Source: an uncultured Gammaproteobacteria bacterium (GTDB lineage: Bacteria; Pseudomonadota; Gammaproteobacteria; UBA4575). From it: 64,000 bases of DNA. Below are positions 23,250-60,938 of the stretch, piece after piece. The notes below the pieces were generated by a model that saw only the letters and a list, made by a program, of their open reading frames with translations, had not been told where the DNA came from and ran no database searches. Position 1 is the stretch's first letter. Every line of letters starts with the position of its first letter. The DNA is taken from contig CAXBLY010000002.1 of assembly GCA_963976865.1 (NCBI GenBank), positions 22,917 through 86,916 of the forward strand, written 5' to 3'. The position numbers and the translations under genes are program-made.

Positions 23250-24881
23250 ATGAATAGTGATGACCGCAAGTTGCAGTTGCCAAATCCACAGGAAGCATTA
23301 AATGAATGCACCAACATTCTGGCGACTGAAGAATTCAAGCGTTCACCGAAAATGTCTTCATTACTTTATTATCTGGTCAACGAAACTCTCGAGGGTCGAT
23401 CTCACTATCTTAAGGCTTACACGATTGCTACCAGTTTGTTCGACAAGGATGAATCCTTCGATCCACAGACAGACCCCTTGATACGTGTTAGTGCAGTTCG
23501 CCTGCGCAGGATGATTCAGCATTATTATCATTCTCAAAAACAACCTGGCCCAGTCAGAATTGAACTAAACAAAGGCAGTTATATTCCTGCATTTTATTAC
23601 ACGGGGAACAAGCAAACCCATCCGGAAAATGAAACACTGCAACACGATAATACCCCACCAATTGAATGCACTTTCCCAAGTCTGGCAGTCTTATACTTCA
23701 AAAATCTGAGCCCTGATCCAGCACATGGCTACATCGCAGATGGATTCACTCAGGAATTACTGACAGAAATATTAAAAGTTAAGTCAATTACGGTTGTCTC
23801 ATATAACGCATTTAATGCCAACGAAAAGCATCATGCCCACCCGAATTACATACCTGAAGTCACCGATGTGCGTTACGTGTTGAGTGGATCACTTCAGGTA
23901 ACCGATCAATCCCTGAGACTTTATGTTCAGCTGGATGATACAAACACTCGTTCAATAATATGGTCAAAGCGTTGCGAGATTGATTTCAAAGTTGATGATT
24001 TTATTTCTGCACAGAGGGAGATTGCCGATCAAGTCGCAAATTATATTGCCCGTCCTTACGGCGCTATCACTCAAAATGAGTTGCGCAATATCCAGCGAAA
24101 AACCACAAAAGACTACAATGCCTACGAACTGCATTTACATTATTATCAGTGGTTAAAAACATTCTCACCGAAAGATCATTCAAAAGCTTACCATTCACTC
24201 AAAGAGTCTTTAAAAATTGACCCTGAATTTTCTGACGCCTGGGCTTCTCTTTCGATAATTTATGTCAACGACTATATATTTTCATATGGCACCGTCACTA
24301 CTGATGAAAGTTTGCTTGATCTCGCCAACCATGCCGCTATTAAGGCAATCAAATCGAACCCTGAAAACCCTCGCGCCAACTATGTGTTGCTATATGGAAA
24401 AATCGCTAAAGACGGAATTAACACTTACCCGGAAGAAGTTGATCTGATTTATCAACACAACAAAAATAATTCACTCATCATTGCAGACATAGGGTTAAGA
24501 CTCGCTATCAGTGGCGACTGGGAACGTGGACTCGAAATAATAGAAGCAGCCATGGTACTAAACCCAGCTCATCCTGATTACTATTATTACCCATTCGTTA
24601 TTAATCATTTCAGGCTTAAAGAATACAAAGAAGCTTTACGCTACGCCAAAATGATTGATATGTCAGAGTTTTATTGGACGCATATCCACTATGCGGCAAT
24701 ATTCTCGGAAACAGGAGACATAGCTAAAGCGAAAGATCACACTCGGATCTTGAAGAAACTATACCCAAATATAGAAAATGAATTTGTAACAGAATTTAAT
24801 AAATGGCACCCCGAGAAAACTCTGGTAGATAAATATATCTCGGCCCTGCAGTTAACAGGATTACAAATACAATCAATCTGA
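23250..24881 (+). CDS. Soluble CadC-like transcriptional regulator: winged-helix (trans_reg_C) DNA-binding domain, TolB-N-like segment and C-terminal TPR region
   Basis: 543 aa with wing/recognition-helix-like IRVSAVRLRRMIQHYY. SLAVLYFKNLSPDPAHGYIADGFTQELLTEILKV matches the conserved TolB-N-like block of CadC-family TPR regulators. The rest is TPR-like. Confidence 0.6.
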   Translation: MNSDDRKLQLPNPQEALNECTNILATEEFKRSPKMSSLLYYLVNETLEGRSHYLKAYTIATSLFDKDESFDPQTDPLIRVSAVRLRRMIQHYYHSQKQPGPVRIELNKGSYIPAFYYTGNKQTHPENETLQHDNTPPIECTFPSLAVLYFKNLSPDPAHGYIADGFTQELLTEILKVKSITVVSYNAFNANEKHHAHPNYIPEVTDVRYVLSGSLQVTDQSLRLYVQLDDTNTRSIIWSKRCEIDFKVDDFISAQREIADQVANYIARPYGAITQNELRNIQRKTTKDYNAYELHLHYYQWLKTFSPKDHSKAYHSLKESLKIDPEFSDAWASLSIIYVNDYIFSYGTVTTDESLLDLANHAAIKAIKSNPENPRANYVLLYGKIAKDGINTYPEEVDLIYQHNKNNSLIIADIGLRLAISGDWERGLEIIEAAMVLNPAHPDYYYYPFVINHFRLKEYKEALRYAKMIDMSEFYWTHIHYAAIFSETGDIAKAKDHTRILKKLYPNIENEFVTEFNKWHPEKTLVDKYISALQLTGLQIQSI

Positions 24882-28744: not shown

Positions 28745-28976
28745 ATAGCCCAATTTCATCCCGTCGGGGTATGCGAATAACGCTCTCAACTCTGACAATG
28801 TACTGCATTTATTCAACTATTCATAATATATACTACATTAGATAGCTCAAGTAACTTATTGAATTATATGGCCAATAAACTGCATTCCCTTTGCATAAAT
28901 AAGTTTTATTTGATTAAGAATGTAATTACATTAGTATATACTAATATTTTTACTAACCAAACCTTAGGGAACTACA

Positions 28977-29582
28977 ATGAAGAAGTCTATAATTTCACTC
29001 TCAAGCCTTATTGGCATTATATCAGTCAGTGCAGCTATCGTATTTAGCAATGTATCAGCTGAAGAAGAAGTAACTAAGCCTGAAACACAACAGAGTTCAA
29101 ATGACTGCCAAATGCCTGCTGCATTCATGAATGCAGAAAACATGGCTAATGCGGTTGCTGACCCTGCCAAATTCATGGAGCTAGTTACTTTGATGAGTAA
29201 CCCACAAGCAGCACAATCCATGATGAATTGTTCAACTGAAACTGAGCAATGGGCAGAATGGAGCAAAAACCTGAGCAATCCTACGTTTAAAATGAATGCT
29301 GCAGCAGTATTTATGAATCCTCAGGTTTACATGAACTGGATGACTGCGATGATGAATCCTCAGACATTCCAGACAACTATGAATACATTCATGAACCCTG
29401 CTCTTTACATGCAATGGATGACAGCTATGTCAAACCCTGCATACTATCAGCCAATGAACAAAATGATGGACCCAGCATGGCAACAGGAAAGCACAGCATG
29501 GATGATGAATCCTGCAAGCTACCAGCAGATGTTCAGTGCTTTTACAACTAGCCCAGCTGTAGCGGAAGTTGCAGTCAACTAA
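28977..29582 (+). CDS. Secreted Met/Asn/Pro/Gln-rich repeat protein (hypothetical)
   Basis: 201 aa, signal peptide ending SNVSA. Iterated units are FMNPQVYMNWMTAMMNP / FMNPALYMQWMTAMSNP / MMNPASYQQMF. The protein is about 15% Met, with no His and few Cys. Confidence 0.6.
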   Translation: MKKSIISLSSLIGIISVSAAIVFSNVSAEEEVTKPETQQSSNDCQMPAAFMNAENMANAVADPAKFMELVTLMSNPQAAQSMMNCSTETEQWAEWSKNLSNPTFKMNAAAVFMNPQVYMNWMTAMMNPQTFQTTMNTFMNPALYMQWMTAMSNPAYYQPMNKMMDPAWQQESTAWMMNPASYQQMFSAFTTSPAVAEVAVN

Positions 29583-29662
29583 GTAGAGATCAGAAATTGC
29601 AGGAAGCAAAAGTAATGTATCTGACTCCCTGGATCTAGAGTAGTAGAAACATTATAGACTCG

Positions 29663-29700
29663 AAAAAGCCTCAATCATTAGATTGGGGCTTTTTTATTTG
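29663..29700. terminator. Bidirectional rho-independent terminator between convergent genes
   Basis: AAAAAGCCTCAATC-atta-GATTGGGGCTTTTTT, a 10-bp stem with an A-run 5' and a T-run 3'. Confidence 0.75.
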
Positions 29701-29713
29701 AAAGATATTAAAA

Positions 29714-30403
29714 TCAAACTGAAAGATACCCACTGATTTTTTCGGCGTCCACATCATCTCGAGTATTTTCAAATATAATCTCACCACTTTCTATCACTAG
29801 AATTCGATCAGCAATAGCCAGGGCAAAATGCAAAACCTGTTCAGACACAATGATGGTGATATCCCGCATTTTTCTTATTTCATTAAGGATATTCGCAATA
29901 TCCTTGATAATTGATGGCTGAATCCCTTCTGTTGGCTCATCCAAAAGTAATACCTTTGGATCCGTTACTAAAGCGCGTGCTATTGCAAGTTGCTGCTGCT
30001 GCCCTCCTGACAGGTTTCCACCTTTTCTATGCCTCATGTCATGCAAGACAGGAAACAGAGAAAATATCTCATCAGGAATCTTCTTTGACCTGGAATTTTC
30101 CAACCCGGTTTCAATGTTCTCCTGTACCGAAAGCGCAGGGAAAATCATTCTGCCTTGTGGCACATATGCAATACCATTAGATACTCTTTCAAAGCTTTCC
30201 ATATTAGAAACATCGGTTGCATCAATTGAAATATTGCCATTATTAACTGGAAGAATTCCTATCAATGATTTGAATAATGTAGTTTTACCCATACCATTCC
30301 TTCCCATAATAGCAATCGTTTGATTATTATCTGCAGTAAAGGATAGATCATCAATGACTTTGCTTTGCCCATATGAGACCTGAATATTTTCAACGTGCAA
30401 CAT
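29714..30403 (-). CDS. urtE: Second-copy urea/amide ABC transporter ATP-binding protein (UrtE/FmdF-like)
   Basis: 229 aa, GRNGMGKTT, LSGGQQQ. Paralogue of 3158..3853. Confidence 0.85.
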   Translation of the reverse strand: MLHVENIQVSYGQSKVIDDLSFTADNNQTIAIMGRNGMGKTTLFKSLIGILPVNNGNISIDATDVSNMESFERVSNGIAYVPQGRMIFPALSVQENIETGLENSRSKKIPDEIFSLFPVLHDMRHRKGGNLSGGQQQQLAIARALVTDPKVLLLDEPTEGIQPSIIKDIANILNEIRKMRDITIIVSEQVLHFALAIADRILVIESGEIIFENTRDDVDAEKISGYLSV

Positions 30404-30434
30404 TATATATTCCTCTTTAATGATTGATTCAGAA

Positions 30435-31187
30435 TTAATGACCCAGATACACTTCTATTACTTGCTCGTTTGATTTAACTTCATGCATTGGCCCTTCTGC
30501 CAACAGCTTTCCCTGATGTAACACAGTGACCTTACTGGCAATTTTCTCAACAAAGTCCATATCATGCTCAATAACAATTACGCTGCGTCCTTGGCATATT
30601 CTTTTTAACAAGTCTGCAGTTTGATCTCTCTCTTTAACACTCATGCCTGCAACCGGCTCATCCAGCATCAACAATTCAGGATCCTGAATTAATAACATTC
30701 CAATCTCTAACCACTGCTTCTGGCCGTGACTTAACAGAGATGCTTCCATTTCGAGAAATTCTTCCAGGAATATCTCTTTCGCAATGCGATGTATTTCCTG
30801 ATCGACTGTTTCTGTTGTTTTAAAAAATATTGCGCTTAATACATTTCTGGCCTGCGGATATGATACTTCCAGATTTTCATAGACAGACAGATTTTCATAA
30901 ATTGAAGGTGTCTGAAATTTCCTGCCAACACCCGCATGTACAATCTGATGCTCCGACATTTTTGTCAGTTCATGATTGTTGAATTTAATATATCCACTAC
31001 TGGCTGATGTTTTACCACATATCAAGTCTAGTAAAGTTGTCTTACCAGCACCGTTAGGTCCAATAATGACTCTCAATTCATTTTTGTCGATATACATCGT
31101 TACATTATCGACAGCTTTAAAACCATCAAAAGAGACAGTTAATTCTTCTATGCTTAGTACAAAATCTGAATTACTACCTTCAGCCAT
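30435..31187 (-). CDS. urtD: Second-copy urea/amide ABC transporter ATP-binding protein (UrtD/FmdE-like)
   Basis: 250 aa, GPNGAGKTT, LSHGQKQWLEIG. Confidence 0.85.
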   Translation of the reverse strand: MAEGSNSDFVLSIEELTVSFDGFKAVDNVTMYIDKNELRVIIGPNGAGKTTLLDLICGKTSASSGYIKFNNHELTKMSEHQIVHAGVGRKFQTPSIYENLSVYENLEVSYPQARNVLSAIFFKTTETVDQEIHRIAKEIFLEEFLEMEASLLSHGQKQWLEIGMLLIQDPELLMLDEPVAGMSVKERDQTADLLKRICQGRSVIVIEHDMDFVEKIASKVTVLHQGKLLAEGPMHEVKSNEQVIEVYLGH

Positions 31188-31207
31188 GATTATTCCTTTT
31201 ATCAGTA

Positions 31208-32368
31208 TTATTCAATTGCTGCAGATGTTTTAGAAGTCATTGCAACGTTATCCTGCAAATTACCGGAGGAATCCTTGTCGGTGTTATTCCTTGAAGCTTT
31301 ATATTTATCAGAGAGTTTCTGATAGATGCCAGCGAGACCATTAGGAAATGCCATGACAACACCGATAAACAAAGCGCCCATCAGGAATAACCATAATTCC
31401 GGAAAACTTTCTGAAAACAATGTTTTTCCGTAGTTGACTAACAGAGTTCCATAGATCGCACCAATCAAACTCATACGCCCCCCTACAGCCGCAAATATAA
31501 CCATCTCAATAGATGGCACAATTCCGACAAATGAAGGAGACATAAAACCTACCTGCAGTGTAAACATTGCACCACCGATTGCAGAAAATGCTGCAGCAAC
31601 ACAAAAGATAAATATTTTAAAATTTGCTACGTCATAACCAGAGAACCTGACCCTGTCTTCTTTGTCCTTGAGTGCTAGCAGTAATTTTCCAACCTTTCCA
31701 TTCAGTATAAAACGTCCGATAAGTACACATATAGCAAGCAATAAAAGATTTATGTAATAGAGGATATATTTTGCCGAATCATCTCTGATATCCCACCCAT
31801 GAAGAGTACGTAGATCAGTGATTCCATTAACACCTCCTATCAAGCCTTGTTGTCCTATAATTAATATCGTTAGAATTGCAGCGACGGCTTGTGTAATAAT
31901 CGCAAAGTACACACCACTCACACGGCGTTTAAACATAGCCGCTCCAATAATGTACGCAAATACGGTTGGCACAATAAGTACTGCAGCTAACGTAAATGCA
32001 AAATTATCAAAAGGCACCCAAAACCATGGCAGTTCAGTTAGCTGATTCCAATCCATAAAGTCAGGTATACCAGGTGTTGATTGAATAGCTGTCGTGACGG
32101 GATCAGATGCTTCGAGCTTGAGAAACATGGCCATGCAATATCCACCCAGGCCAAAAAATACTCCTTGACCTAAACTCAGAATTCCACCATACCCCCAACA
32201 CAACACCAGGCTCATGGCAACAAAAGCATAAGTGAGATATTTACCAACAAGGTTCAATCGGAATATATCCAGTACTAGTGGCAGCAAGACACCTAAGAAT
32301 ACAAGTATGACAACCAAACCAATCATGTCATTTTTGCTTCCCAACATTCTTTGTAAAGCTATATTCAT
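31208..32368 (-). CDS. urtC: Second-copy urea/amide ABC transporter permease (UrtC-like)
   Basis: 386 aa polytopic, paralogue of 4613..5728. Confidence 0.8.
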   Translation of the reverse strand: MNIALQRMLGSKNDMIGLVVILVFLGVLLPLVLDIFRLNLVGKYLTYAFVAMSLVLCWGYGGILSLGQGVFFGLGGYCMAMFLKLEASDPVTTAIQSTPGIPDFMDWNQLTELPWFWVPFDNFAFTLAAVLIVPTVFAYIIGAAMFKRRVSGVYFAIITQAVAAILTILIIGQQGLIGGVNGITDLRTLHGWDIRDDSAKYILYYINLLLLAICVLIGRFILNGKVGKLLLALKDKEDRVRFSGYDVANFKIFIFCVAAAFSAIGGAMFTLQVGFMSPSFVGIVPSIEMVIFAAVGGRMSLIGAIYGTLLVNYGKTLFSESFPELWLFLMGALFIGVVMAFPNGLAGIYQKLSDKYKASRNNTDKDSSGNLQDNVAMTSKTSAAIE

Positions 32369-32379
32369 AAAAGCTCTCC

Positions 32380-33306
32380 TTATTTTCTGACTTTGACTGA
32401 GAACAAACCTTCAGGCTTTATCATCAATATGATGATCACTGTTAACAGTGTAAGCACCTTGGCCATAGATCCTGAAAGGAAAAATTCCATAATTGATTGC
32501 GCCTGGGCGATTGAAAATGCAGATGCAATAGTCCCCAATAAACTCGCAGCACCACCAAATACAACAACCAAAAATGTATCAACGATATAAAGAGATCCAC
32601 TGGTAGGGCCTGTTGACGCAATGGTTGTAAATACTGCTCCTGCAATTCCAGCGATCCCACATCCAAATGCAAATGTATAACGGTCAACTTTTTTAGTATT
32701 AATACCAGCAGCCCCACTCATAACACGATTCTGAGTTGTGGCTCTTATACGCAAACCCCAACGTGATTTATAAAGCATATAAAATACTGCCAGGGTAAGA
32801 AAAAATGTAACTGTCACCACCAGAATTCCATTAATTGGAATTTCTATGATATCTGTTAACTGATAAGAACCCAGCAACCAATCTGGCAAAGTTGGGCTAA
32901 CTTCTCTTGCCCCAAATGCAGAACGGAATCCTTGCTGCATTATCAGGCTCAATCCCCATGTGGCCAGCAAAGTATCCAATGGCCTTTTATATAAATGCCT
33001 GACCATCCCTAACTCAACCAGGTAACCAACTATAAAAGCAATAAAGAAAGCAATGACAATGGCAAAGAAAAAATAATAATCCATAAACTCAGGAATATGC
33101 TTTTGAGTTAATACAGATAATAAATAAGTTGTGTATGCGCCAATTGTCAGAAATTCACCATGGGCCATGTTAATTACCTGCATTTGCCCAAATATGATCG
33201 CAAGTCCCAGTGCCATCAACAAAAATACACAAAATAGACTCAACCCGGAAAAGCCCTGCATTGCAAATATTGATCCCAGCTCAGATGCAGAATAATCAGA
33301 GAACAT
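32380..33306 (-). CDS. urtB: Second-copy urea/amide ABC transporter permease (UrtB-like)
   Basis: 308 aa polytopic, paralogue of 5732..6607. Confidence 0.8.
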   Translation of the reverse strand: MFSDYSASELGSIFAMQGFSGLSLFCVFLLMALGLAIIFGQMQVINMAHGEFLTIGAYTTYLLSVLTQKHIPEFMDYYFFFAIVIAFFIAFIVGYLVELGMVRHLYKRPLDTLLATWGLSLIMQQGFRSAFGAREVSPTLPDWLLGSYQLTDIIEIPINGILVVTVTFFLTLAVFYMLYKSRWGLRIRATTQNRVMSGAAGINTKKVDRYTFAFGCGIAGIAGAVFTTIASTGPTSGSLYIVDTFLVVVFGGAASLLGTIASAFSIAQAQSIMEFFLSGSMAKVLTLLTVIIILMIKPEGLFSVKVRK

Positions 33307-33412
33307 TAGCTAACTCCTTGCAAATTATTATTCATGTGCATTATCGAGTAACAACCAATGTTGAACTCAGGCTATTACTCGATATGCATGATTAAGTTAA
33401 ATCCCAGTCGCC

Positions 33413-34669
33413 TTATTGATAACCTTCAGGGAATGGATTTGGCTCAATCAGATCTGATTCGTAAATCACTTCAAATTGCCCATCAGCTTTTGCCAGACCA
33501 ATTCTTGTTTTACTCCACAGATGGTGATTCTTATCATGAATACGTACATAGCCTTCCGGTGCTGTAGTCAACTCTATGCCATTTGATGAAACTGCAATTT
33601 TATCAACATCAAAACTGCCGGCTTTCTCGACAGCTGCTTTCCATAGCCATGGGCCAAGATAGGCAGCCTGTGTGACGTCGCCAATAACGCTATCTTCGCC
33701 CCACATTTCCTTAAACTCCTTAACAAAATTTGTATTATTTTCATTGTCAAGACTCTGGAAATATTTCATTGCAGAATAAAAACCTTCAACATTTTCACCA
33801 CCAATGCCCAGCATTTCATCTTCTGTTACAGAAATAGTTAATAAAGTCCATTTATCTGACGTAATACCAGCTGCTTTAAGTTGCTTGAACCATGAAACAT
33901 TGCTACCACCAACAACTGCGGCGTAAATCACGTCTGGCTTCTTCAGTTTAATCTTGTTAATTAAAGATCCGAAGTTTGTGTGACCAAGTGGGTAGTACTC
34001 TTCTCCTACTACTTTTCCACCTAATACATTCTCAATGTGTTTGCGAGCAATCTTCATAGAAGTTCTTGGCCAGATATAATCGGAACCAACCAGGTAAAAA
34101 GTTTTTGCACCTTTTTTCTCTTTAATCCAGTCTAATCCAGCAAGAATTTGTTGTGTCGCTTCCTGACCTGTATAAATTACATTTTTGGACTGTTCAAGAC
34201 CTTCGTAAAATGTTGGGTAATAAAGCATGCCATTTTCTTTCTCAAATACAGGCAGTGCAGCTTTACGTGAAGCAGACGTCCAGCAACCAAATACCGCGGC
34301 TACTTTGTCATTGACTAATAACTTCCTTGATTTCTCCGCAAATGTTGGCCAGTCACTAGCACCGTCTTCTTGGATTATCTCAATCTTTCTACCAAGTACT
34401 CCGCCCATTTCATTTATCTGGCTAATCGCAAGCTTTTCAGCTTCAACTGAACCAGTTTCACTGATTGCCATGGTACCTGTCACTGAATGTAGAATACCTA
34501 CTGTTACAGTATCATCGGTAACAGCCAATCCTGTGGTGTTTACCTCCGATGTAGGGTAATCATTAGAAAATACGTTCTGACTTACGAATAAAAATATTAT
34601 TAATAATGAACTCAGAACACTTAATTTAAACTTATGCATGTTTCTATCTCCGAAGTTAATGTAAATCAT
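33413..34669 (-). CDS. urtA: Second-copy periplasmic urea/amide/formamide binding protein (UrtA/FmdD-like), Sec-type signal; likely start at the internal Met (about 34639)
   Basis: LivJ/UrtA-like body (VTVGILHSVTGTMAISE, QINEMGGVLGRKI). MHKFKLSVLSSLLIIFLFVSQNVFS looks like a Sec signal, in contrast to the Tat signal on copy 1. Confidence 0.85.
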   Translation of the reverse strand: MIYINFGDRNMHKFKLSVLSSLLIIFLFVSQNVFSNDYPTSEVNTTGLAVTDDTVTVGILHSVTGTMAISETGSVEAEKLAISQINEMGGVLGRKIEIIQEDGASDWPTFAEKSRKLLVNDKVAAVFGCWTSASRKAALPVFEKENGMLYYPTFYEGLEQSKNVIYTGQEATQQILAGLDWIKEKKGAKTFYLVGSDYIWPRTSMKIARKHIENVLGGKVVGEEYYPLGHTNFGSLINKIKLKKPDVIYAAVVGGSNVSWFKQLKAAGITSDKWTLLTISVTEDEMLGIGGENVEGFYSAMKYFQSLDNENNTNFVKEFKEMWGEDSVIGDVTQAAYLGPWLWKAAVEKAGSFDVDKIAVSSNGIELTTAPEGYVRIHDKNHHLWSKTRIGLAKADGQFEVIYESDLIEPNPFPEGYQ

Positions 34670-34969
34670 GTTCGAAAATATTCATTGCAACTACAATGCC
34701 AACTACGTTTTTACAAGCGAATTAAATTATTTGTTATGAGAATGATATTGAATCATGTTAATTACGCACTAATTTCTTTCATCATTAAATCGTTAAAACT
34801 TTATAATGGTGCGTAAGTAATATAAATTTTTATATATCAATAAACAGACCAGAATTAACACTCTGTAATTTCAGAAAGCTATGCATTTTTAGATGCATAG
34901 AATCTTTTATTAGTGCAGAATTATTATGGTACGGATGCTGACAAGATTTGATGCCTAAACGCATCTATA

Positions 34970-35233
34970 TTATTTGACTTGTGGGCGGGTATTTTGATCG
35001 AGTATTTTTTTCACTGTTGAGCAGTGCCATTTACCATTTCTTGGAGTTTTATATTGATTCTCATTTAAATAATCACATATATCCTGAAGAATATGACCGC
35101 TCTTTCTTAAATTAATAATTTTGGATATGGTTGCTTGCTGATCACGATCTATCATTTGATAACCACTCGCTGCGATTCTCCAGCCATAACGCATTCTCCT
35201 GTAGTTACAATGATCGACCTTGTAGGCTCTCAC
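34970..35233 (-). pseudogene. Remnant of a large serine recombinase: only the 'Recombinase' domain is present and the N-terminal catalytic resolvase domain is missing
   Basis: The 87-aa ORF YGWRIAASGYQMIDRDQQATISKIINLRKSGHILQDICDYLNENQYKTPRNGKWHCSTVKKIL aligns with the recombinase domain of TnpX/SpoIVCA-type enzymes (...YSLRKIAKYLNE.GIPTPRGGKWSASTISRIL). There is no room upstream for a catalytic domain, because fmdB ends 12 nt away. Confidence 0.55.
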
Positions 35234-35245
35234 TAGTCTTGCTCC

Positions 35246-35560
35246 TTAGTGTCCTAGCATCCATGGTCTGCCACCTGGCGATGCCTGCATATATTCAGGC
35301 TTCTTATGTGAATGATTATCATGAGAGTGATCATGTCCACAGGAATGCTTTTTCTTCCTTATTGGTTCGTGAGCACTCTTTTCATTTTTTTCCCAGGCCT
35401 GTCTGTTTCTATTGTTCATTAAAGATAATGCAGGAGCGGAAATAATGCGCGTCGTATCTGATCCACATGAAGGACAAGGAAAAGTATCATTTCTATTATT
35501 TATATTTGCATGCTGGATAAAATCGCCATGTTCTTCACAACGGTATTCATATATAGGCAT
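35246..35560 (-). CDS. fmdB: FmdB-family zinc-ribbon putative regulatory protein with a His-rich C-terminal tail
   Basis: 104 aa. MPIYEYRCEEHGDF...FPCPSCGS is the FmdB/CxxC_CxxC_SSSS ribbon, with the first pair being C..H. Immediately downstream of fmdA. The tail is HSCGHDHSHDNHSHKK. Confidence 0.75.
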   Translation of the reverse strand: MPIYEYRCEEHGDFIQHANINNRNDTFPCPSCGSDTTRIISAPALSLMNNRNRQAWEKNEKSAHEPIRKKKHSCGHDHSHDNHSHKKPEYMQASPGGRPWMLGH

Positions 35561-35588
35561 TATCTACACTCCTGAATTTAATTTAACA

Positions 35589-36845
35589 TTAACTGGTAAA
35601 CGCCAGATCTTGCGAACCTGTTACCTCTTTAGTTGGCCCTTCTTCTTTGATATTGATATCAAAGTCAAATATTCCTGTTGGTAGCCATAGAGTAGAACAT
35701 GCATTCGGAATATCGACTATTCCACTAATGTGTCCTTCAACTGGTGCGGTACCTAAAATTGCATATCCCTGTGCTCCGGTGAATCCAAATTTCTTCATAT
35801 ACTCAATCGCATTTAAACATGCTCTACGATAAGCAATGTGAGGATCAAGATAATATTGCTCTCCGTCTTCGTCGACTGAAATCCCTTCAAAGATCAGGTA
35901 GTCAGAATAATCCGGATCAATTTTACTTGGTTTGAAGATAGGATTAACGACACTATATTTCTCCATCCCACCTTTAATAATGCTCACTTTGATGTCCAGA
36001 TACCCGGCCATCTCGATTGCTCCACAGAATGTAATTTCTCCATCACCCTGAGAAAAATGGATATCACCCATGGAAAGTCCCGCACCATCAACATACACTG
36101 GAAAATAAACAGTTGATCCACGCGAAAGATTTTTGATATCACAATTACCACCATGTTCTCTTGGAGGTACTGTTCTGGCAGCTTCAGCTGCAGCTTTATC
36201 ACGCGCTGCACCTGTCAGTGACCCCATTAGCGCAGTATCTGCATAGGGTAATGCTGCCAATGGCGGTACTCTGTCAGGGTCTGTGTTAACCAGCTTGGTT
36301 TCACGCTTGTTCCACTCATCCAGCAAGTCAGCAGATGGCAGACAGCCAATCAATCCCGGATGCATTGTGCCTGGAAATCTGACGTGAGGAATGTGTCTTG
36401 AAGATGCCCATATACCACTAAAGTCCCAGCATGCTTTTCTTGCTTCAGGATAATGCTCAGTCAGGAATCCACCTCCATTCTCGCGAGCAAAGAATCCAGT
36501 GAACCCCCAGGCAGATTCAGGTAATACACCGACATCCAGAATATCCACGACTAGCAAGTCTCCAGGCTTTGCTCCCTCGACACCAATAGGCCCACTCAAG
36601 TAGTGCACTTTGGTTAAATCGACATCCCGAATATCATTCGCACTATCATCATTTTCAATTTGTCCTCCAGTCCAGTCAATACACTGAACTCGAAATTCCT
36701 GTCCTGGTTTAACAGTTGAAGTAAATGGAATATCAGGATGCCATCGATTGTGAAGTACATCGGCTTGTTCTTCTGGTGTTTTATCTATATCTACTTCTAT
36801 TAGCGTTTCTATCATTATGCTCACTCCTAGCTGATTAAGGATCAA
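35589..36845 (-). CDS. fmdA: Formamidase of the acetamidase/formamidase (FmdA_AmdA) family; probable true start at the internal Met (MIETLIEVD, about 36815)
   Basis: About 408 aa from the internal Met, the FmdA size. Conserved blocks are NRWHPDIP, DWTGGQI.NDDSA.D, LSGPIGVEGAKPGDLLVVD, GNCDIKNL and HFSQGDGEI. The fmdA-fmdB-fmdDEF(urt-like) arrangement is as in Methylophilus. Confidence 0.85.
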   Translation of the reverse strand: MILNQLGVSIMIETLIEVDIDKTPEEQADVLHNRWHPDIPFTSTVKPGQEFRVQCIDWTGGQIENDDSANDIRDVDLTKVHYLSGPIGVEGAKPGDLLVVDILDVGVLPESAWGFTGFFARENGGGFLTEHYPEARKACWDFSGIWASSRHIPHVRFPGTMHPGLIGCLPSADLLDEWNKRETKLVNTDPDRVPPLAALPYADTALMGSLTGAARDKAAAEAARTVPPREHGGNCDIKNLSRGSTVYFPVYVDGAGLSMGDIHFSQGDGEITFCGAIEMAGYLDIKVSIIKGGMEKYSVVNPIFKPSKIDPDYSDYLIFEGISVDEDGEQYYLDPHIAYRRACLNAIEYMKKFGFTGAQGYAILGTAPVEGHISGIVDIPNACSTLWLPTGIFDFDINIKEEGPTKEVTGSQDLAFTS

Positions 36846-47494: not shown

Positions 47495-48196
47495 TCAGTA
47501 CTCACGTTGCAGTAAAAAGTTTTTGTAATAACGAACATCGTCGCGTATAAGCTCCAGATCTATAGATTGTGTATATTTAATCTGATCAAACGCATCTGAA
47601 AACTGGTCCGCATTCGTTGCTGCCACACCATTTACCGATACAATCAAATCTCCCTTCTGCAAATCAAGTTTTTTGGAGACATTTTCTTCAAGCACACTTT
47701 TAACCTCAAACGCTGCCAGCTGCCCATCTTGCATATGAGGAACCAAATTAAACGTGGTGATGAAATTTTCGGGCTTATCAAAAAATTGTTTGCGGTCTTC
47801 GGTGGATATATTTACAGGAGGTGACCATACATCTTTGCCTGCTGTTGATGTTATATCAATGCTTAAGCTTCTTAATGTCAAGGTAAGCACCTGGTCATTA
47901 CAGTAGAAACTAACGCGGCTACGACGAACATAATCCAGCACACAGCCAGCAACTACGTCACCGACTCGCAATACTAATTCACGATGCTTTTCTTTATCAA
48001 ACAGAACGGCAATTGAGTCAGGGTTATTCAGGACAACCCCGCTTAATTCAAAATTGGCTAATTTAAGTGGCGTACTCCAGACTGCCGGGACCGAAACGGC
48101 AAATGACAGGATCGCAACAGATATCCAGCGCAATCTAGACTGGATAAAAATCGATCGGATAATTAAATGTAAATACTGGAACATCTTCAGATCCAA
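47495..48196 (-). CDS. Membrane-anchored PDZ-domain protein (GspC-like architecture), last gene of the TonB array
   Basis: N-terminal TM helix WISVAILSFAVSVPAVW and a C-terminal PDZ-like block GDLIVSVNGVAATNADQFSDAFDQIK. The start is uncertain because the ORF overlaps the tonB 3' end. Confidence 0.4.
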   Translation of the reverse strand: MDLKMFQYLHLIIRSIFIQSRLRWISVAILSFAVSVPAVWSTPLKLANFELSGVVLNNPDSIAVLFDKEKHRELVLRVGDVVAGCVLDYVRRSRVSFYCNDQVLTLTLRSLSIDITSTAGKDVWSPPVNISTEDRKQFFDKPENFITTFNLVPHMQDGQLAAFEVKSVLEENVSKKLDLQKGDLIVSVNGVAATNADQFSDAFDQIKYTQSIDLELIRDDVRYYKNFLLQREY

Positions 48197-49121
48197 AATT
48201 GATCAGTTTTACGCGTTGAATTAGTTTCTGCTCGAGTTCCGTATCAGCCAGTTCACTACTGACGATATATACTTCAGTCACCTTCCCTGAAGGCGCAATA
48301 GAAATTTTTAGGACGACTTTTCCCTGCAGGTCAGGTGATGATCTAAGTGCCCGATTGTACATACTGAATATCGCACTCTTATTTCTATCAAATGTGATCT
48401 GTATTTTTTCCAGATCACGCTGCGCCGCACGTCCAACACCATTGTCACTGCCTGTGCCTGAACCGCCCTCACCAGCCCCCAGACCAGCAGGTCCAGAAAC
48501 ACGGCTCGCTGTTCTGCCGCCCAGTCCGGTACCCGATACGTCCCGGCTCAATGCAGCAGTATTGATACCACCACTGCCTTTACCTGTGTTCTTTGTTACC
48601 AGAGAACGTTCAATTCTTGAAGCCGAGCCACCACTATTACTGAGTGACCGCTCACCTAAAGTTTGCGAATTTGTTTTTTTACTGATGTCAGCCAATTCAC
48701 TTTGAAATGCCAGCAAACCCGAGGCCGCTGCCACTTCTTTTGCAGATTTTTTAGGTGGCGCAGGTGCTACCTTTTTCTGAGGGACAGGCTTATTAGCTGC
48801 TTTAGCAACTTTCTTTTCCTGTACTTTCTTTATTGCTTTTGGTTTTGTAGTTTTGACTGGTTTGTTAATTTTCTGAGGCACCACTTTTTTAACAATCGGT
48901 GGAGGTGGTGGAAGCTTTTTTTCAATCAGTATTTTTACAACGCGCTTTTCCTGTAATTCCTCAACTGGTTTTTCTTTTTCTGGCAAGGGCAGGAATGGGA
49001 CAATCAGGGTGAGCACAAGACAAGTCATCGTGACACGATTCAATACGCGTCTGAATCTTGTTTTCTCTACGGTTGACACTTCCCATGGGAGGCGCCATGA
49101 ATATACGGCTGCTGCTGTCAT
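48135..49121 (-). CDS. tonB: TonB-family energy transducer; start probably at the internal Met (MTAAAVYSW...)
   Basis: N-terminal TM anchor, a long Pro/Lys-rich spacer (KKLPPPPPIVKKVVPQK...KPVPQKKVAPAPPKK) and a C-terminal TonB domain (VVLKISIAPSGKVTEVYIVSS...FNYPIDF). Confidence 0.75.
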   Translation of the reverse strand: MTAAAVYSWRLPWEVSTVEKTRFRRVLNRVTMTCLVLTLIVPFLPLPEKEKPVEELQEKRVVKILIEKKLPPPPPIVKKVVPQKINKPVKTTKPKAIKKVQEKKVAKAANKPVPQKKVAPAPPKKSAKEVAAASGLLAFQSELADISKKTNSQTLGERSLSNSGGSASRIERSLVTKNTGKGSGGINTAALSRDVSGTGLGGRTASRVSGPAGLGAGEGGSGTGSDNGVGRAAQRDLEKIQITFDRNKSAIFSMYNRALRSSPDLQGKVVLKISIAPSGKVTEVYIVSSELADTELEQKLIQRVKLINFGSEDVPVFTFNYPIDFYPV

Positions 49122-49125
49122 AACT

Positions 49126-49629
49126 CTAACTTGCTTTAGTAGATTCTCTTTGAATAACGGATAATGATATCTGCTCAAAACCAGCACTTGAACAAATCTG
49201 CATGACTTGCTTTATCAGGCTGAATGGCACTTCTTTATCACCCATTATAGTAATTTCCTTTTTCTCACCTTCTTGCACATCTGCCTGAACTTTTAGCATC
49301 TCTTCCTGAAGTGCCATCTGTAGCTTTTGCACATCCGCTTTCTTATTTCCATTGATATCACCTGAACTGACAACTTTCTGACCCTGCAGGCTTATATCTT
49401 CATTATTAAGCATTAATACTACAGAAACACGCGGCTTTTTCTCAGCCATAGACTGCGGCATTTCAATGCCTTTAGCATTTGGTAGTACAGTCGGGTCCGA
49501 CGCATTCACCAGTAAGAAAAATACCAAAATGGTAAATATATCCATCAGCGAGACAATATTAAATGGTGCCTGCTTTTTAGCGCGATCATGATTGCGCTGC
49601 ATTCTTTGTACTGTTTTTTTGCCACGCAT
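49126..49629 (-). CDS. exbD: ExbD/TolR-family biopolymer transport protein (copy 2)
   Basis: 167 aa, single TM (FNIVSLMDIFTILVFFLL), ExbD fold. Confidence 0.8.
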   Translation of the reverse strand: MRGKKTVQRMQRNHDRAKKQAPFNIVSLMDIFTILVFFLLVNASDPTVLPNAKGIEMPQSMAEKKPRVSVVLMLNNEDISLQGQKVVSSGDINGNKKADVQKLQMALQEEMLKVQADVQEGEKKEITIMGDKEVPFSLIKQVMQICSSAGFEQISLSVIQRESTKAS

Positions 49630-49631
49630 AA

Positions 49632-50138
49632 TTATCTTCCTGCTGTATACACTGGAGCATCACCCACAGCGATATCAGGAAACAGATCTGCAAATACTGT
49701 TTCCCCATCCTTAACTACTTCTGCCGCCCTGACTGAGTCCATAATCTGAACAAGCACATCGTAGGTAATGTCTGGTTCTAACAGTATTGTTGCATTTTGA
49801 ATATCCTGATACCTGGTTTTCAGGCCTTGTAAATATTCGTTAAGTGCTGTTAATTCGTAGCCTTGGTCGCCGTTTTTAATTGATTTGAGTACGCCCTTGT
49901 TACGATCCTGAACACGCAATGAATTCTCGCGTACAACAATTTCAAGCTCTAATGTTTTAACGTTATTTTTGACAACATCAGATTTGGCTGGCAAATCCAG
50001 TTCCAAAATACTTATTTTAGAAAACACCGCTGTAATCAGCAGGAAAGGAACCAGAATTACCATCAGGTTCATGAAAGCAGTAATACTTAGCTCTGCTTCT
50101 TCCCTGTTGCGTCTTCTACTATGGCGTCTATATATCAT
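49632..50138 (-). CDS. exbD: ExbD/TolR-family biopolymer transport protein (copy 1)
   Basis: 168 aa, single TM (ITAFMNLMVILVPFLLI). Confidence 0.8.
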   Translation of the reverse strand: MIYRRHSRRRNREEAELSITAFMNLMVILVPFLLITAVFSKISILELDLPAKSDVVKNNVKTLELEIVVRENSLRVQDRNKGVLKSIKNGDQGYELTALNEYLQGLKTRYQDIQNATILLEPDITYDVLVQIMDSVRAAEVVKDGETVFADLFPDIAVGDAPVYTAGR

Positions 50139-50155
50139 AATGACTTATATCAATT

Positions 50156-50812
50156 TTATGCTTCAGCCTGTGCCTGCTTTCGCGCACTGACTGCAATGGT
50201 ATTCAGTACTTTGACTGAGGCCATCTCAAGGCTATCAACAATTTCTGTAGTCTTGGTCTGTAACCAGGAATGCAGAAGCAATAATGGAATACCTACCATC
50301 AGTCCAAATGCGGTTGTATTCATCGCAACCGAGATACTTGATGAGAGCAAATCTGCTTTTTCTGCAGGGCTTGCCGCGGATATTGCTGTAAATGCATCGA
50401 TTAGACCGATAATTGTTCCAAGCAGACCTAACAGGGTTGCAACATTTGCAAAAGTCGCCAGGTAATGAGTCCGCTTTTCCAGTTTAGGAACCACTTCCAT
50501 TAAACCTTCTTCCATTGCCGTTTCAATATCATCTCTACGGCGTGACGTTTGCGCACTTGCAATGCCATAGCCCATAATTCGGCTGATAGCACATTTGGAT
50601 TTTTCAGCAAAATTCATTGCTTCATTCATATTGCCACTGGCCAGTACTGTCTGAATTTTTTTCCAGGCAATCTGATTTTTAATTCGTGTGGAAGAAAGAT
50701 AAATATATCTTTCAATGGCGATCGCCAAACCTATGGCTAACACAAACACGATTGGGATCATGAAAATACCGCCGGACTGGAAGAATGTTACAAAAGACTC
50801 ATACATATTCAT
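50156..50812 (-). CDS. exbB: MotA/TolQ/ExbB proton-channel protein
   Basis: 218 aa, three TM helices, conserved C-terminal GLMVGIPLLLLHSWLQ. Confidence 0.85.
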   Translation of the reverse strand: MNMYESFVTFFQSGGIFMIPIVFVLAIGLAIAIERYIYLSSTRIKNQIAWKKIQTVLASGNMNEAMNFAEKSKCAISRIMGYGIASAQTSRRRDDIETAMEEGLMEVVPKLEKRTHYLATFANVATLLGLLGTIIGLIDAFTAISAASPAEKADLLSSSISVAMNTTAFGLMVGIPLLLLHSWLQTKTTEIVDSLEMASVKVLNTIAVSARKQAQAEA

Positions 50813-50842
50813 TGGGACTCCCTATTACTTAATATCGTAAAT

Positions 50843-51103
50843 TTATTTTCTACTTTGCTGATAGAAATCTACTTTGCGTTGAAAAACTTCCTTATCTACC
50901 GGCTGTATATATTCGTTAATATGTCGCTGCAGAAAAAAGTCGCCCTCACCTGGCAGTGATGCTTTCCATGGAACAATCACCAGACTTTTGGGTAATTCTT
51001 TATTACCAATAATTGAAATACCATTAAGCTCCTGCACATTCTGATCTGCAAATGACATACTTTGCATGAATATAAAGATCATAATTAGCAAGAAGATTTT
51101 CAC
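50843..51103 (-). CDS. Small secreted hypothetical protein (86 aa)
   Basis: Signal peptide MKIFLLIMIFIFMQSMSFA. Sits between the TPR lipoprotein gene and exbB. Confidence 0.4.
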   Translation of the reverse strand: MKIFLLIMIFIFMQSMSFADQNVQELNGISIIGNKELPKSLVIVPWKASLPGEGDFFLQRHINEYIQPVDKEVFQRKVDFYQQSRK

Positions 51104-51119
51104 TATCCCAACTCCATCA

Positions 51120-51752
51120 CTATTTTATTTGACTCTCTCTACGTGATAAATCACTTATCCAGGCTATGACTTGTTTATCGTCATTTTTTTCTATTTCTTG
51201 ATATGCCTGATAATGTGATTTTGCACAAACTATTTTCTGTAAATACAGGTCACATAAAATAGCTAAATTTAGATGAGCGTTTGCGTAATTCGGATACTCG
51301 GCCAGAGCATTTTTATACATACTCTGCGCCTCCTCAAAAGCGCCTTTTTCACGTTTAATAATGCCTGCCTGATTTAATGCATAAGGATTCTTTGGATTCA
51401 GCTTAACGGCAGTTTCAATAGCATGATCGGCTTTATCAATTTCGCCCAGTTTTCGGTAAGCTATCGCGATATTCACCCAGGGGCCTGAAGCACGCGGTTC
51501 TTTTTCTGCAACCTGATTGAATATTTCGATGGCCTGCAAATAATCTTCTGCAGACATTGCTTCCACACCATATCCAAACTGCTGTTCAACAGACGCAGAA
51601 ACTTTATAATTCTGCTTTACAACTATTCTGGAACTTTCATCTTTATTGTTGGCAACTGAAGATACATTACTGGGCGCATTTGCACATGCCGTTAACAGCA
51701 ATACAATGAAACCTGAAATAATATATTTAGTATTAATGAATTGTCTCCACAT
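51120..51752 (-). CDS. TPR-repeat lipoprotein
   Basis: 210 aa, lipobox LLTAC, TPR units (AIAYRKLGEIDKADHAIETAVKLNPKNPYALNQAG...). Confidence 0.6.
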   Translation of the reverse strand: MWRQFINTKYIISGFIVLLLTACANAPSNVSSVANNKDESSRIVVKQNYKVSASVEQQFGYGVEAMSAEDYLQAIEIFNQVAEKEPRASGPWVNIAIAYRKLGEIDKADHAIETAVKLNPKNPYALNQAGIIKREKGAFEEAQSMYKNALAEYPNYANAHLNLAILCDLYLQKIVCAKSHYQAYQEIEKNDDKQVIAWISDLSRRESQIK

Positions 51753-56438: not shown

Positions 56439-56465
56439 TTAAAGGTAAGCTCTCTGCCAGATCAC

Positions 56466-57038: not shown

Positions 57039-57039
57039 C

Positions 57040-58393: not shown

Positions 58394-58396
58394 GAT

Positions 58397-58912: not shown

Positions 58913-58932
58913 GACGCCTCCACATACATAAT

Positions 58933-59571: not shown

Positions 59572-59590
59572 AATTTATCCCTTCCCTTCT

Positions 59591-60376: not shown

Positions 60377-60386
60377 TTCAAATTAT

Positions 60387-60911: not shown

Positions 60912-60938
60912 GGTAACTTCTCCGTAACTATTTAATAT

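Follow-up and report, generated by a model that had tools for sequence, protein, structure and literature searches.

The gene described here is predicted to encode a roughly 19-kDa Sec-targeted periplasmic protein of an undescribed family, and taxonomy and gene context tie this family, by association, to periplasmic sulfur oxidation and not to copper. The reading we favour, tentatively and at somewhat under even chance, is that the protein is a periplasmic accessory of sulfide/thiosulfate oxidation which would bind zero-valent sulfur on a Met/aromatic surface. The original prediction had suggested a Cu(I)/Ag(I) binder like CusF, PcoC or CopB, or else an oxidant sink repaired by MsrPQ; tests of fold, His content and gene neighbours gave no support for either. 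For sulfur oxidisers whose Sox system is truncated, there is a recognised gap in explaining how zero-valent sulfur stays soluble in the periplasm and is passed to importers; the route of periplasmic sulfane sulfur to SoxT is likewise an open question (PMC11582611). The family is a candidate for this sulfur-handling step that is conserved, easily expressed (19 kDa) and has defined partners (DUF302, periplasmic rhodanese, FCSD and SoxT). In addition, the conserved operator could be used to fish out the regulator, and there are cultivable carriers among the Betaproteobacteria, for example Parasulfuritortus cantonensis or a Thiobacillus.

A Met-rich repeat protein and its relatives

The coordinates of the gene and its flanking elements in the window (the whole 64-kb stretch of DNA that was analysed) are collected in Table 1. 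By inspection, the signal peptide is laid out as MKK / SIISLSSLIGIISVSAAIVF / SNVSA, followed by EEE, and an equivalent N-terminus is present in all homologues of the alignment. The product contains 25 Met residues, i.e. 12.4% of all residues, 13.9% once the predicted signal peptide is removed and 16.4% (24/146) of residues 45-190, the repeat domain; the 40 other ORFs of the window have a mean Met content of 2.3% (sd 1.1, maximum 4.9%). His and Arg are completely absent. The repeat unit has 13 residues and can be written as (M/S)-(N/D)-P-x-x-(Y/F/W)-x-x-(W/x)-M-x-x-(M/F). There are about 11 N-P-capped copies, with Pro at positions 63, 76, 102, 115, 128, 141, 154, 166 and 179. At lags of 13 and 26 residues, BLOSUM autocorrelation reached z = 6.1 and z = 7.3, respectively, a periodicity that none of 2000 shuffled sequences matched. 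N114 and P115 are invariant across the homologue alignment, and a nearly invariant Cys85 (29229-29231) also lies in the repeat domain.

Table 1. Position of the gene, its domains and its putative control elements in the window
Feature	Position	Strand	Details and basis
ORF	28977-29582	+	ATG 28977 to TAA 29582, 201 aa
Predicted Sec-type signal peptide, aa 1-28	28977-29060	+	n/h/c regions read from the translation; predicted cleavage between VSA and EEE
Acidic variable linker, aa 29-44, ending at invariant Cys44	29061-29108	+	pLDDT <50; columns vary except C44
Repeat domain, aa 45-190, modelled as about 11 short helices	29109-29546	+	AF2 pLDDT 80-91, 13-residue periodicity
C-terminal tail, aa 191-201, motif P-V-V-A-D/E-A, plus stop	29547-29582	+	Alignment; low model confidence
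Putative sigma-70-like core promoter	28914-28942	+	-35 TTAAGA (28914-28919), 17-bp spacer, -10 TATACT (28937-28942); consensus scan
Perfect 12-bp palindrome ATGTAATTACAT in the promoter spacer	28920-28931		Sole exact copy in the 64-kb window
Perfect 16-bp palindrome ATTAGTATATACTAAT over the -10 element, putative operator	28930-28945		Sole PWM match >=14 bits in the window
Shine-Dalgarno-like AGGGA, 6 nt upstream of the start codon	28966-28970	+	Read from the sequence
Intrinsic terminator hairpin, 15-bp stem 29662-29695, flanked by A-run and U-run	29662-29700		RNA fold

Most of what the original prediction had said about the protein itself held. It had proposed a secreted protein with a signal peptide, about 15% Met, no His and MxxM/MxxxM spacings; export remains a prediction from the n/h/c regions and the homologues' N-termini, the Met figure is fair, and the spacings are found at M119-122-125/126, M145-148-151 and M160-163/164. 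The tandem repeats that it had noticed are real (z = 6-7), although a 13-residue unit describes them better than (F/W)M(N/S)NP-x2-(Y/F)-x2-(W)M. We propose to define the family by a signal peptide and at least 8 tandem 13-residue units of the type (M/S)(N/D)P-x2-(Y/F/W)-x3-M-x2-(M/F), both of which this protein has. The unit is common to the gammaproteobacterial and betaproteobacterial members. As a further, though not universal, mark of the family we propose the upstream operator ATTAG(A/T)ATAT(A/T)CT(A/T)AT, which this gene has as a perfect palindrome.

The fold predicted by AF2 is all-alpha, with repeat-domain helices of 9-12 residues (pLDDT 80-91) and the signal peptide as a separate low-confidence helix. 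The model shows a stack of about 11 short helices formed by the N-P-capped repeats, in which the buried or groove-forming positions are predicted to be almost exclusively Met, Trp, Tyr, Phe and Ala. A fold search with this model yielded no similar solved structure and no solved copper protein; the weak matches were all generic helical-repeat or designed repeat proteins. Conservation of the Met positions, whose failure the original prediction had named as grounds for its rejection, was found in an alignment of 36 sequences with identities as low as 33%. There are 25 Met-dominant columns versus 3 for Leu, 2 for Val and none for Ile, and 80% of the cells in these 25 columns are Met, with only one third of the substitutions leading to Leu, Ile or Val. 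Some members have a Met-poor paralogue next to them that is clearly related (30% identity, E 2e-18) but has Leu, Ala or Ile where Met would stand; the scaffold thus does not require Met, which is kept by selection. No Cys is conserved outside a probable structural pair, and betaproteobacterial members have no Cys at all.

About 100 homologues were found at E <1e-12, and the family is present in 169 of 1.84 billion representative clusters. With dN/dS values of 0.06-0.11 and saturated dS, the comparison of homologues shows the ORF to be a real gene under purifying selection. Apart from its unusual composition, nothing speaks for a chance ORF or a low-complexity artefact. Such an origin can practically be dismissed and is in our view already refuted by the conservation data: in addition to the substitution rates, there are full-length homologues in more than 100 clusters, and the promoter/operator, the Shine-Dalgarno-like site and the terminator are conserved. 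As had been anticipated, the protein belongs to no annotated family; no Pfam or NCBIfam family passed the threshold, and searches up to E = 10 returned just GerD and noise. Run against the complete set of PDB sequences, the family profile matched no copper protein up to E = 1. Some relatives carry C-terminal fusions to OmpA (OmpA_C) or BON domains, and the database names of relatives are without exception "hypothetical", "BON domain" or "OmpA-like".

The named carriers are all chemolithotrophs, namely sulfur- or iron-oxidising Gamma- and Betaproteobacteria. Among loci from 80 GTDB species, those on the gammaproteobacterial side belong to Thiotrichales, Chromatiales or unclassified marine gammaproteobacterial MAGs, and the remaining named loci to Thiobacillaceae, Hydrogenophilales, Gallionellaceae or Parasulfuritortus. 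The one named cultured carrier with omics data that we found is Parasulfuritortus cantonensis (strain LSR1). Complete genomes with the gene are CP046178.1, OX638335.1, OY730298.1 and JAWPMW010000001.1. A literature search for Met-rich proteins in sulfur oxidisers returned nothing relevant.

Promoter, putative operator and candidate repressor

The spacer upstream of the ORF is 232 bp long. The -10 part of the putative promoter sits in a block that is kept in relatives whose remaining spacer has diverged. The 12-bp palindrome is conserved in the closest clade only, with TGTAATTACA at the same place in three loci (L001, L010 and L012) and a copy with one mismatch in L011. The 16-bp putative operator, in contrast, recurs with the pattern ATTAG(A/T)ATAT(A/T)CT(A/T)AT in most of the gammaproteobacterial loci carrying the gene, irrespective of the neighbours; its distance to the start codon is usually 40-50 nt and ranges from about 17 to 90 nt. 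GC-rich betaproteobacterial loci carry it as AATAGAATGTACTAAT. The palindrome is thus conserved across two proteobacterial classes, and in most members it overlaps the -10 element. Matches of at least 12 bits were found upstream of 39 of the 72 family genes versus 5.6% of all genes. The operator is not universal in the family, however, and is missing from the two members L212 and L214, which lie in an FCSD operon.

At the Shine-Dalgarno position, relatives have GGGAA, GGGGT or GAGGA. The terminator hairpin has a dG of -20 kcal/mol (z = -4.2; 0/200 shuffles fold as well) and is probably bidirectional, serving also the convergent urtE-like gene. A simple consensus terminator scan did not list it, and no Rfam family reached its gathering score in the region including the hairpin. 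The promoter region of its own and the strong terminator that had been postulated from the letters were thus both recovered, and the arrangement shows the gene to be its own predicted transcription unit, the promoter of which is overlapped by the palindromic putative operator.

The operator is also found at a DUF302/Met-rich operon in three loci (L016, L018 and L019) and at another MNP-repeat protein in L058. On unrelated contigs, the same 19-mer precedes ArsR-type genes which are followed by genes for Met-rich secreted proteins, DUF302 and DsrE. We attempted to define the regulon by a metagenome scan with this 19-mer, but the result was mostly noise. Among the matches listed, the ArsR cases account for 3 of 66 downstream ORFs and family members for none, and seven matches fall inside the reading frame of a phage structural gene (EEAVLEYSYI); the information gained is limited to the three ArsR cases. 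No ArsR homologue was found in the window, in the 80 loci or near any family member. The probable ligand of the operator is an ArsR-type repressor whose gene lies at some other place in the genome. Co-regulation with sox was also considered. The operator was not found or enriched upstream of soxY, soxZ, soxT or fcc, and the gene is therefore not co-regulated with those genes through this site.

Gene neighbourhoods and the candidate ligand

In the window, the gene is flanked by rapA and by a urea-type ABC operon, and there is no sulfur gene in the 64 kb. Elsewhere, 20 of the 80 loci have soxY within 8 kb. Its side is the same in every case, while at least four arrangements occur on the opposite flank of these loci. 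In about 20 species of Gammaproteobacteria, one gene separates the family gene from the soxYZ region, with a YeeE/SoxT-like gene, a DUF302 gene and fccAB-like genes nearby. This soxYZ island contains genes for a TsuA/YeeE-like transporter, a NapC/NirT-type cytochrome and FCSD-like proteins, for 2-4 further secreted proteins with 10-29% Met, and for a DUF302 protein with a Met-rich N-terminus. Because these cases come from one clade, the linkage could be inherited synteny. A separate gene string in L212-L214, which represent another lineage, reads rhodanese, DUF302, family member (assigned by hhalign with a probability of 98.2%), cytochrome c and FCSD, with gaps of 10-37 bp, export signals on all five products and soxYZ upstream. 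An OmpA-fused member adjoins aprBA and sat. DUF302 genes occur in sox operons, where they have long been unexplained (PMC5248467), and in persulfide-dioxygenase/rhodanese modules (PMC6305408).

Other contexts (livKHMGF in Betaproteobacteria, Mla, a multidrug RND pump) were uninformative. Neither the 64-kb window nor the recurrent neighbours in the 80 GTDB loci and 15 further contigs include cop, cus, pco, multicopper-oxidase, CopC/D, P-type ATPase or msrPQ genes. A copper link through the RND pump near Hydrogenophilaceae members was discarded, as the pump is of the multidrug type (494 bits versus 245 for CusA/CzcA). The urea/Liv-type ABC genes, convergent in the window and co-directional in Betaproteobacteria, are probably coincidental synteny, since a shared operator or function is not evident.

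On the sulfur reading, the soft, polarisable and hydrophobic Met/aromatic surface would bind S8 or long-chain polysulfane arising from FCSD and the truncated Sox system. The bound sulfur would be kept dispersed or coated, or be handed towards SoxYZ or the SoxT importer, and the OmpA- or BON-fused relatives would have this role while being anchored to the cell wall or membrane. We know of no precedent for a Met-based sulfur-binding protein. It is possible, if rather doubtful, that this is the founding member of a class of cysteine-free Met/aromatic "thioether-ladder" helical repeats that bind elemental sulfur or polysulfane non-covalently, within a dedicated, ArsR-controlled regulon that would include a DUF302 subfamily, further Met-rich secreted proteins and a YeeE/SoxT transporter. 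If so, such a regulon would be the missing link by which bacteria without SoxCD connect periplasmic FCSD/Sox chemistry to the import or storage of sulfur.

A periplasmic Cu(I)/Ag(I) buffer or chaperone is an unlikely alternative, in which Met stripes on the helices (i, i+3, i+6/7) beside Trp/Tyr would hold the ion through thioether and cation-pi contacts as in CusF, the Ctr1 Met motifs and CusB. The conserved Met positions, arranged in MxxM/MxxxM ladders next to Trp or Tyr, would suit such a role, as would the resemblance of the operator to those preceding ArsR/SmtB-type regulators, many of which are metal sensors. The Met-rich protein beside the ArsR gene of L094 also has His, and a DUF302 gene flanks a heavy-metal island in one paper (PMC7760498). 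On the other hand, nearly all members lack His, copper-handling genes are missing from the window and the recurrent neighbours, the nearby RND pump scores as multidrug, and neither the family profile nor the model matched a solved copper protein. A general copper protein would also not be expected in sulfur and iron oxidisers only. Should the ligand nevertheless be Cu(I), the protein would still represent a new His-free fold for soft-metal binding, specific to sulfidic lifestyles; with either ligand, no solved structure resembles the predicted fold.

The restriction to these taxa and the FCSD/rhodanese operon are left unexplained by a sacrificial oxidant sink, in which surface Met would scavenge HOCl, peroxide or other periplasmic oxidants and a periplasmic methionine sulfoxide reductase would then restore it, as with MrpX and MsrPQ. 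We consider this very unlikely: neither msrP nor msrQ occurs in the window or among the recurrent neighbours, and Met occupies fixed positions of a confidently modelled repeat, not a disordered Met-rich tail. The high Met content fits a sink, as does L151, where the ArsR-type gene that follows the same operator precedes genes for an OsmC-type protein and for a secreted protein rich in Met and Gly; the ArsR-type proteins encoded behind the operator contain just one Cys each, as would befit the sensing of oxidants. Finally, the protein may be a structural or tethering envelope protein, or a chaperone for hydrophobic clients, without a specific small ligand. Its composition would then provide a plastic hydrophobic surface only, and the sulfur neighbours would reflect lineage synteny. 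Fusions to the envelope-anchoring OmpA_C and BON domains, the same scaffold in Met-poor paralogues, the contexts without sulfur genes and the generic character of the weak fold matches are all compatible with this. We nonetheless judge it improbable, as Met is kept at 25 positions over wide divergence, with only a third of the substitutions to Leu/Ile/Val, the operator is common specifically to other Met-rich proteins, and one member lies inside an operon between DUF302 and fccAB.

Comparison with known systems

CusF, CopC/PcoC, PcoE/SilE and CopK are, like this protein, small, periplasmic and Met-rich with MxxM-type spacings, and CusF also places an aromatic residue (Trp44) beside Met. They differ in being beta-barrel, cupredoxin-like or disordered and His+Met-rich, and in being encoded in cus/cop/pco/sil operons, whereas the present protein is a predicted all-alpha 13-residue repeat with 0 His and no metal-resistance neighbours. 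We found neither membership of the CusF, CopC or PcoC families nor a beta-barrel/cupredoxin-like fold with a Met2His or Met3-4 site, nor the corresponding operon location. The disordered HxxM/MxxH repeats of PcoE/SilE are absent as well, as there are 0 His (0-1 in most homologues) and pLDDT values of 80-91. MrpX of Azospira suillum, which acts with MsrPQ/YedYZ, is similarly secreted, Met-rich and under stress-type regulation of its own; it is reportedly a short peptide whose gene accompanies yedYZ and is controlled by an ECF sigma factor. In contrast, the present protein is a folded repeat by prediction, has another type of operator and is unlinked to msrP/msrQ (yedYZ), with no Oxidored_molyb- or YedZ-type neighbour in the window or related loci.

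SgpA-D of Allochromatium vinosum share Sec export, small size, repetitiveness, confinement to sulfur oxidisers and a presumed contact with zero-valent sulfur, and the first four of these were also found for the present family. Sgp proteins are described as Gly/Tyr-rich structural proteins, for which no Met/aromatic 13-mer repeat has been described; this comparison is by description and not by sequence, and no Sgp-named family was among the Pfam/NCBIfam matches. ApoA-I and phasins provide an analogy only, as their period is 11/22 and not 13/26, they are rich in Leu and charges, and there is no homology. The spore germination lipoprotein GerD (PF17898 / NF040801) is alpha-helical with M-x-D-P-x-(Y/F) segments and was the sole database family with any score, albeit below the curated cut-off. 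Neighbourhoods, operons and compartment are shared by SoxYZ, periplasmic rhodanese, DsrE/TusA and the DUF302 proteins of sox clusters. The known sulfur carriers SoxYZ, rhodanese and DsrE/TusA bind sulfur covalently on Cys, unlike the present family, the Cys residues of which are conserved at most as the probable structural pair. The family, SoxYZ, rhodanese, DsrE/TusA and these DUF302 proteins plausibly act at the same step of the pathway, between FCSD/Sox and SoxT import.

The repeat protein and its conserved methionines

The open reading frame at 28977-29582 (+) was correctly located by the original prediction and is a real, conserved gene. Its product of 201 residues begins, as had been read, with a Sec signal peptide (predicted cleavage between VSA and EEE). 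The composition was also described accurately: there is no His, and the 25 Met make up 12.4% of the whole protein, 13.9% of the predicted mature chain and 16.4% of residues 45-190, while the 40 other ORFs of the window have a mean of 2.3% and a maximum of 4.9%. The protein further lacks Arg, contains two Cys, and has just six residues each of Leu and Ile. The tandem repeat is real, but its periodicity is more regular than the unit first written. Prolines recur at positions 63, 76, 102, 115, 128, 141, 154, 166 and 179, which defines a 13-residue unit, (M/S)(N/D)P-x2-(Y/F/W)-x3-M-x2-(M/F). BLOSUM autocorrelation peaks at lags 13 (z = 6.1), 26 (z = 7.3) and 39 (z = 3.7), values attained in 0 of 2000 shuffles. 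As anticipated, Pfam and NCBIfam do not recognise the protein; the sole match, GerD, scored far under threshold and was rejected.

AlphaFold2, run on the family alignment, gave a model with pLDDT 80-91 across residues 45-185 and eleven helices 9-12 residues long, every one beginning at the Pro of its N-P cap. The fold search found no known fold equal to this model; its weak matches (designed helical repeats, TPR or PUF proteins, apolipoprotein A-I) would suit a helical-repeat architecture. The two conserved Cys probably form a periplasmic disulfide, and since betaproteobacterial members have zero Cys, they are no part of the function.

One search yielded 100 homologues, every one annotated as hypothetical and without Pfam domains, the top one at 77% identity. 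The family is small, since a profile search against 1.84 billion representatives gave no more than 169 clusters with E at or below 1e-3. Against three relatives, dN/dS is 0.06-0.11, with dS saturated. Across 36 aligned sequences reaching as low as 33% identity, three residues never change (C44, N114, P115), and conservation is 90% or more at most of the Met, Trp, Tyr and N-P positions. Met dominates 25 columns of the mature part, Leu three, Val two and Ile none, so hydrophobic positions in the domain are occupied by Met, aromatic residues and Ala. Homologues do keep the Met positions: 80% of the cells in Met columns are Met, and Leu, Ile and Val account for just one third of the substitutions.

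A Met-poor paralogue (3-6% Met) lies downstream of the Met-rich member in betaproteobacterial loci; the two are clearly homologous (30% identity, E 2e-18), and the paralogue has Leu, Ala or Ile where its neighbour has Met. The repeat scaffold therefore accepts ordinary aliphatic residues. Judged from these sequences, Met in the repeat domain is selected and not demanded by structure, and its persistence in the Met-rich subfamily points to a role for the thioether as such.

Promoter, operator and candidate regulator

An AT-rich spacer of 232 bp separates the gene from rapA on its 5' side, and a urea-type ABC operon runs towards it from the other. Both the separate promoter and the strong terminator proposed for it were recovered. 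A predicted sigma-70-like promoter, TTAAGA-17-TATACT, lies within a block kept in relatives despite divergence of the rest of the spacer, and a 15-bp hairpin with a U-run (dG -20 kcal/mol, z = -4.2) stands between the convergent genes. The promoter block contains two palindromes, of which the second is a putative operator. Gammaproteobacterial members with this element have variants of the form ATTAG(A/T)ATAT(A/T)CT(A/T)AT, independent of the neighbouring genes and mostly 40-50 nt (range about 17-90 nt) upstream of the start codon; GC-rich loci of Thiobacillaceae, Gallionellaceae and Hydrogenophilaceae have the version AATAGAATGTACTAAT. Operator PWM matches of at least 12 bits were found upstream of 39 of the 72 family genes, as against 5.6% of all genes at the same loci, and the 64-kb window contains exactly one match of at least 14 bits. 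The operator also precedes the DUF302/Met-rich operon in three loci (L016, L018, L019) and another MNP-repeat protein in L058; in family loci it is absent upstream of soxY, soxZ, soxT and fcc.

Two further elements are conserved in betaproteobacterial loci. The first, an inverted repeat of the form GTTGCG-N4-6-CGCAAC, stands in the interval that separates livF from the operator, about 30-60 nt before the latter (L073, L076, L077, L078, L081, L084), and probably terminates the liv operon; the second, CGTACAC, comes shortly after the operator. Cluster 24, exported proteins with Met/Pro-rich low-complexity stretches found near members in the gammaproteobacterial paralogue group, shows divergent transcription from the shared operator region.

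A metagenome scan with the 19-mer gave mostly noise, and among the matches listed 0 of 66 downstream ORFs is a family member. Seven matches are coding sequence of a conserved phage structural gene (peptide EEAVLEYSYI-NMHQ) near portal-like and tail-like genes, which shows that the motif by itself is not diagnostic beyond the family context. Three of the matches listed lie 22-45 nt 5' of small ArsR-type HTH genes (Pfam HTH_5); one of these contigs, L186, ends too soon to show the next genes. The arrangements suggest that the operator is the site of an ArsR-family repressor, and that a module of Met-rich exported protein and DUF302 recurs well beyond Proteobacteria. Because no such ArsR gene was found near family members, the repressor assignment is one that we infer. 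The other two contigs, L094 and L151, are unrelated (37% and 50% GC), and their ArsR proteins have in common an N-terminal H-A-E-M-C-K-V-F motif holding their only Cys.

Features of the window and of compared loci (L-numbers denote loci or contigs)
Feature	Location	Coordinates	Remarks
Palindrome ATGTAATTACAT	window	28920-28931	conserved in closest clade only
Palindrome ATTAGTATATACTAAT (putative operator)	window	28930-28945	overlaps -10 element
Terminator hairpin	window	29662-29695
cbbQ/norQ-type AAA gene	window	1173-1970
HAAT ABC transporter sets, amide/urea-type	window	1173-10020 (-); 29714-36845 (-)	two separate sets
543-aa ORF	window	23250-24881 (+)	between bacterial-globin and DUF2059 genes; no Pfam family at E up to 1e-5
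Co-directional block	window	47495-63929 (-)	ORFs 47495-48196 and 56466-57038 without Pfam match
Met-poor paralogues directly 3' of Met-rich member	L076; L077; L079; L081; L084	5165-5854; 2159-2890; 8865-9521; 8697-9221; 8460-9035	all share DP/NP-capped repeat scaffold, Leu/Ala replacing Met, and conserved C-terminal R-x-R-Y
Met-rich secreted set between YeeE/SoxT-like and NapC/NirT-type genes	L016; L019; L020; L029	7035-10853;;; 11602-13383	about 15 further loci (L016-L035, L041, L062)
Cluster 24	L048; L050; L053	;; 6762-7697
Exported protein with Met/Pro-rich low-complexity stretches	L083	1030-1686 (-)	near family member, Hydrogenophilaceae
19-mer in phage gene	L091; L095; L101; L119; L134; L166; L182	2420;; 2260;;; 1423; 
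19-mer, ArsR-type gene, secreted Met-rich protein with SHOCT domain, SAM methyltransferase, DUF302, DsrE-like	L094	8535-10997
19-mer, ArsR-type gene, OsmC-type gene	L151	8510-10825	secreted Met/Gly-rich protein further on

Carriers and gene neighbourhoods

The named carriers among 80 GTDB species all belong to sulfur- or iron-oxidising chemolithotroph lineages: marine 'Thiotrichales' and Chromatiales MAGs in the Gammaproteobacteria, and Thiobacillaceae, Hydrogenophilales, Gallionellaceae and Parasulfuritortus cantonensis elsewhere. Distant members extend the same repeat domain at its C-terminal side, either with a BON domain or with a Pro/Ala linker plus OmpA_C peptidoglycan-binding domain. 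A sulfur island lies one gene away (a HAD hydrolase or SirB-like gene between) in roughly 20 gammaproteobacterial species. It comprises soxY-soxZ, a TsuA/YeeE-like (SoxT-type) transporter, a NapC/NirT-type cytochrome, a dihaem cytochrome with a flavoprotein like that of flavocytochrome-c sulfide dehydrogenase (FCSD), two to four more secreted proteins of 10-29% Met, one with a CxxCH motif, and a DUF302 protein with a Met-rich N-terminal extension. The gene's opposite flank takes at least four different forms in these species. No NCBIfam model exists for the island's Met-rich secreted proteins or their DUF302 neighbour; one of the former has 20-29% Met and a single CxxCH, and two others are MMNP/MMGP low-complexity repeats.

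Another lineage (L212-L214, about 60% GC) has a string of rhodanese, DUF302, member, cytochrome c and FCSD genes with gaps of 10-37 bp and export signals on all five products, immediately preceded by soxYZ and a sigma-54 activator. The member is homologous to the family (hhalign probability 98.2%, E 6e-14), and its DUF302 neighbour and that of the gammaproteobacterial island belong to one subfamily. An OmpA-fused member adjoins aprBA and sat. Neighbouring livKHMGF (Betaproteobacteria), Mla and multidrug-type RND pump genes are uninformative.

In the window the gene has been relocated and now has rapA and urtE as its neighbours. The 64 kb contain no sulfur, copper or msr genes; the cbbQ-like gene fits an autotroph. 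One HAAT set includes an aliphatic amidase (CN_hydrolase), an AmiR/ANTAR regulator and an AmiC-like binding protein, the other a formamidase. The co-directional block looks like an uncharacterised envelope system, with ExbB, two ExbD, several very large TPR proteins (938, 630 aa), DUF3570, two OMP beta-barrel proteins and a 996-aa protein with a hydrazine-synthase-alpha middle domain.

Proposed sulfur binding and its alternatives

Four lines of evidence, which we count as independent, argue for a role in sulfur metabolism: the strict restriction to sulfur- and iron-oxidiser taxa, the repeated linkage to soxYZ, SoxT, FCSD and rhodanese (one tight operon included), the constant partnership with one DUF302 subfamily, and co-regulation with other Met-rich periplasmic proteins. 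DUF302 genes occur in sox operons (PMC5248467) and in persulfide-dioxygenase modules (PMC6305408). Since FCSD and truncated Sox yield zero-valent sulfur in the periplasm and its route to SoxT-type importers is unresolved (PMC11582611), we tentatively propose, as a serious possibility, non-covalent binding of S8 or polysulfane to a Met/aromatic surface of the protein. The protein would then act as carrier, dispersant or coat of periplasmic zero-valent sulfur, and its relatives fused to OmpA or BON would be tethered forms of this binder.

The original prediction had favoured Cu(I)/Ag(I) binding or an oxidant sink, and composition is the sole basis of both. Membership tests by sequence, fold and operon context were negative for either, as were His motifs for the metal-binding proteins; we thus regard Cu(I)/Ag(I) binding as unlikely and an oxidant sink as very improbable. 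That the product is an envelope protein without any ligand seems to us rather improbable.

Pfam and NCBIfam hold no model of the family, the PDB holds no relative and literature searches found nothing; the family, its predicted fold and its operator thus appear to be undescribed. Sulfur binding through Met, if real, would be a new mechanism. In kind, both Met-rich periplasmic proteins and accessory genes of sulfur-oxidation clusters are known.
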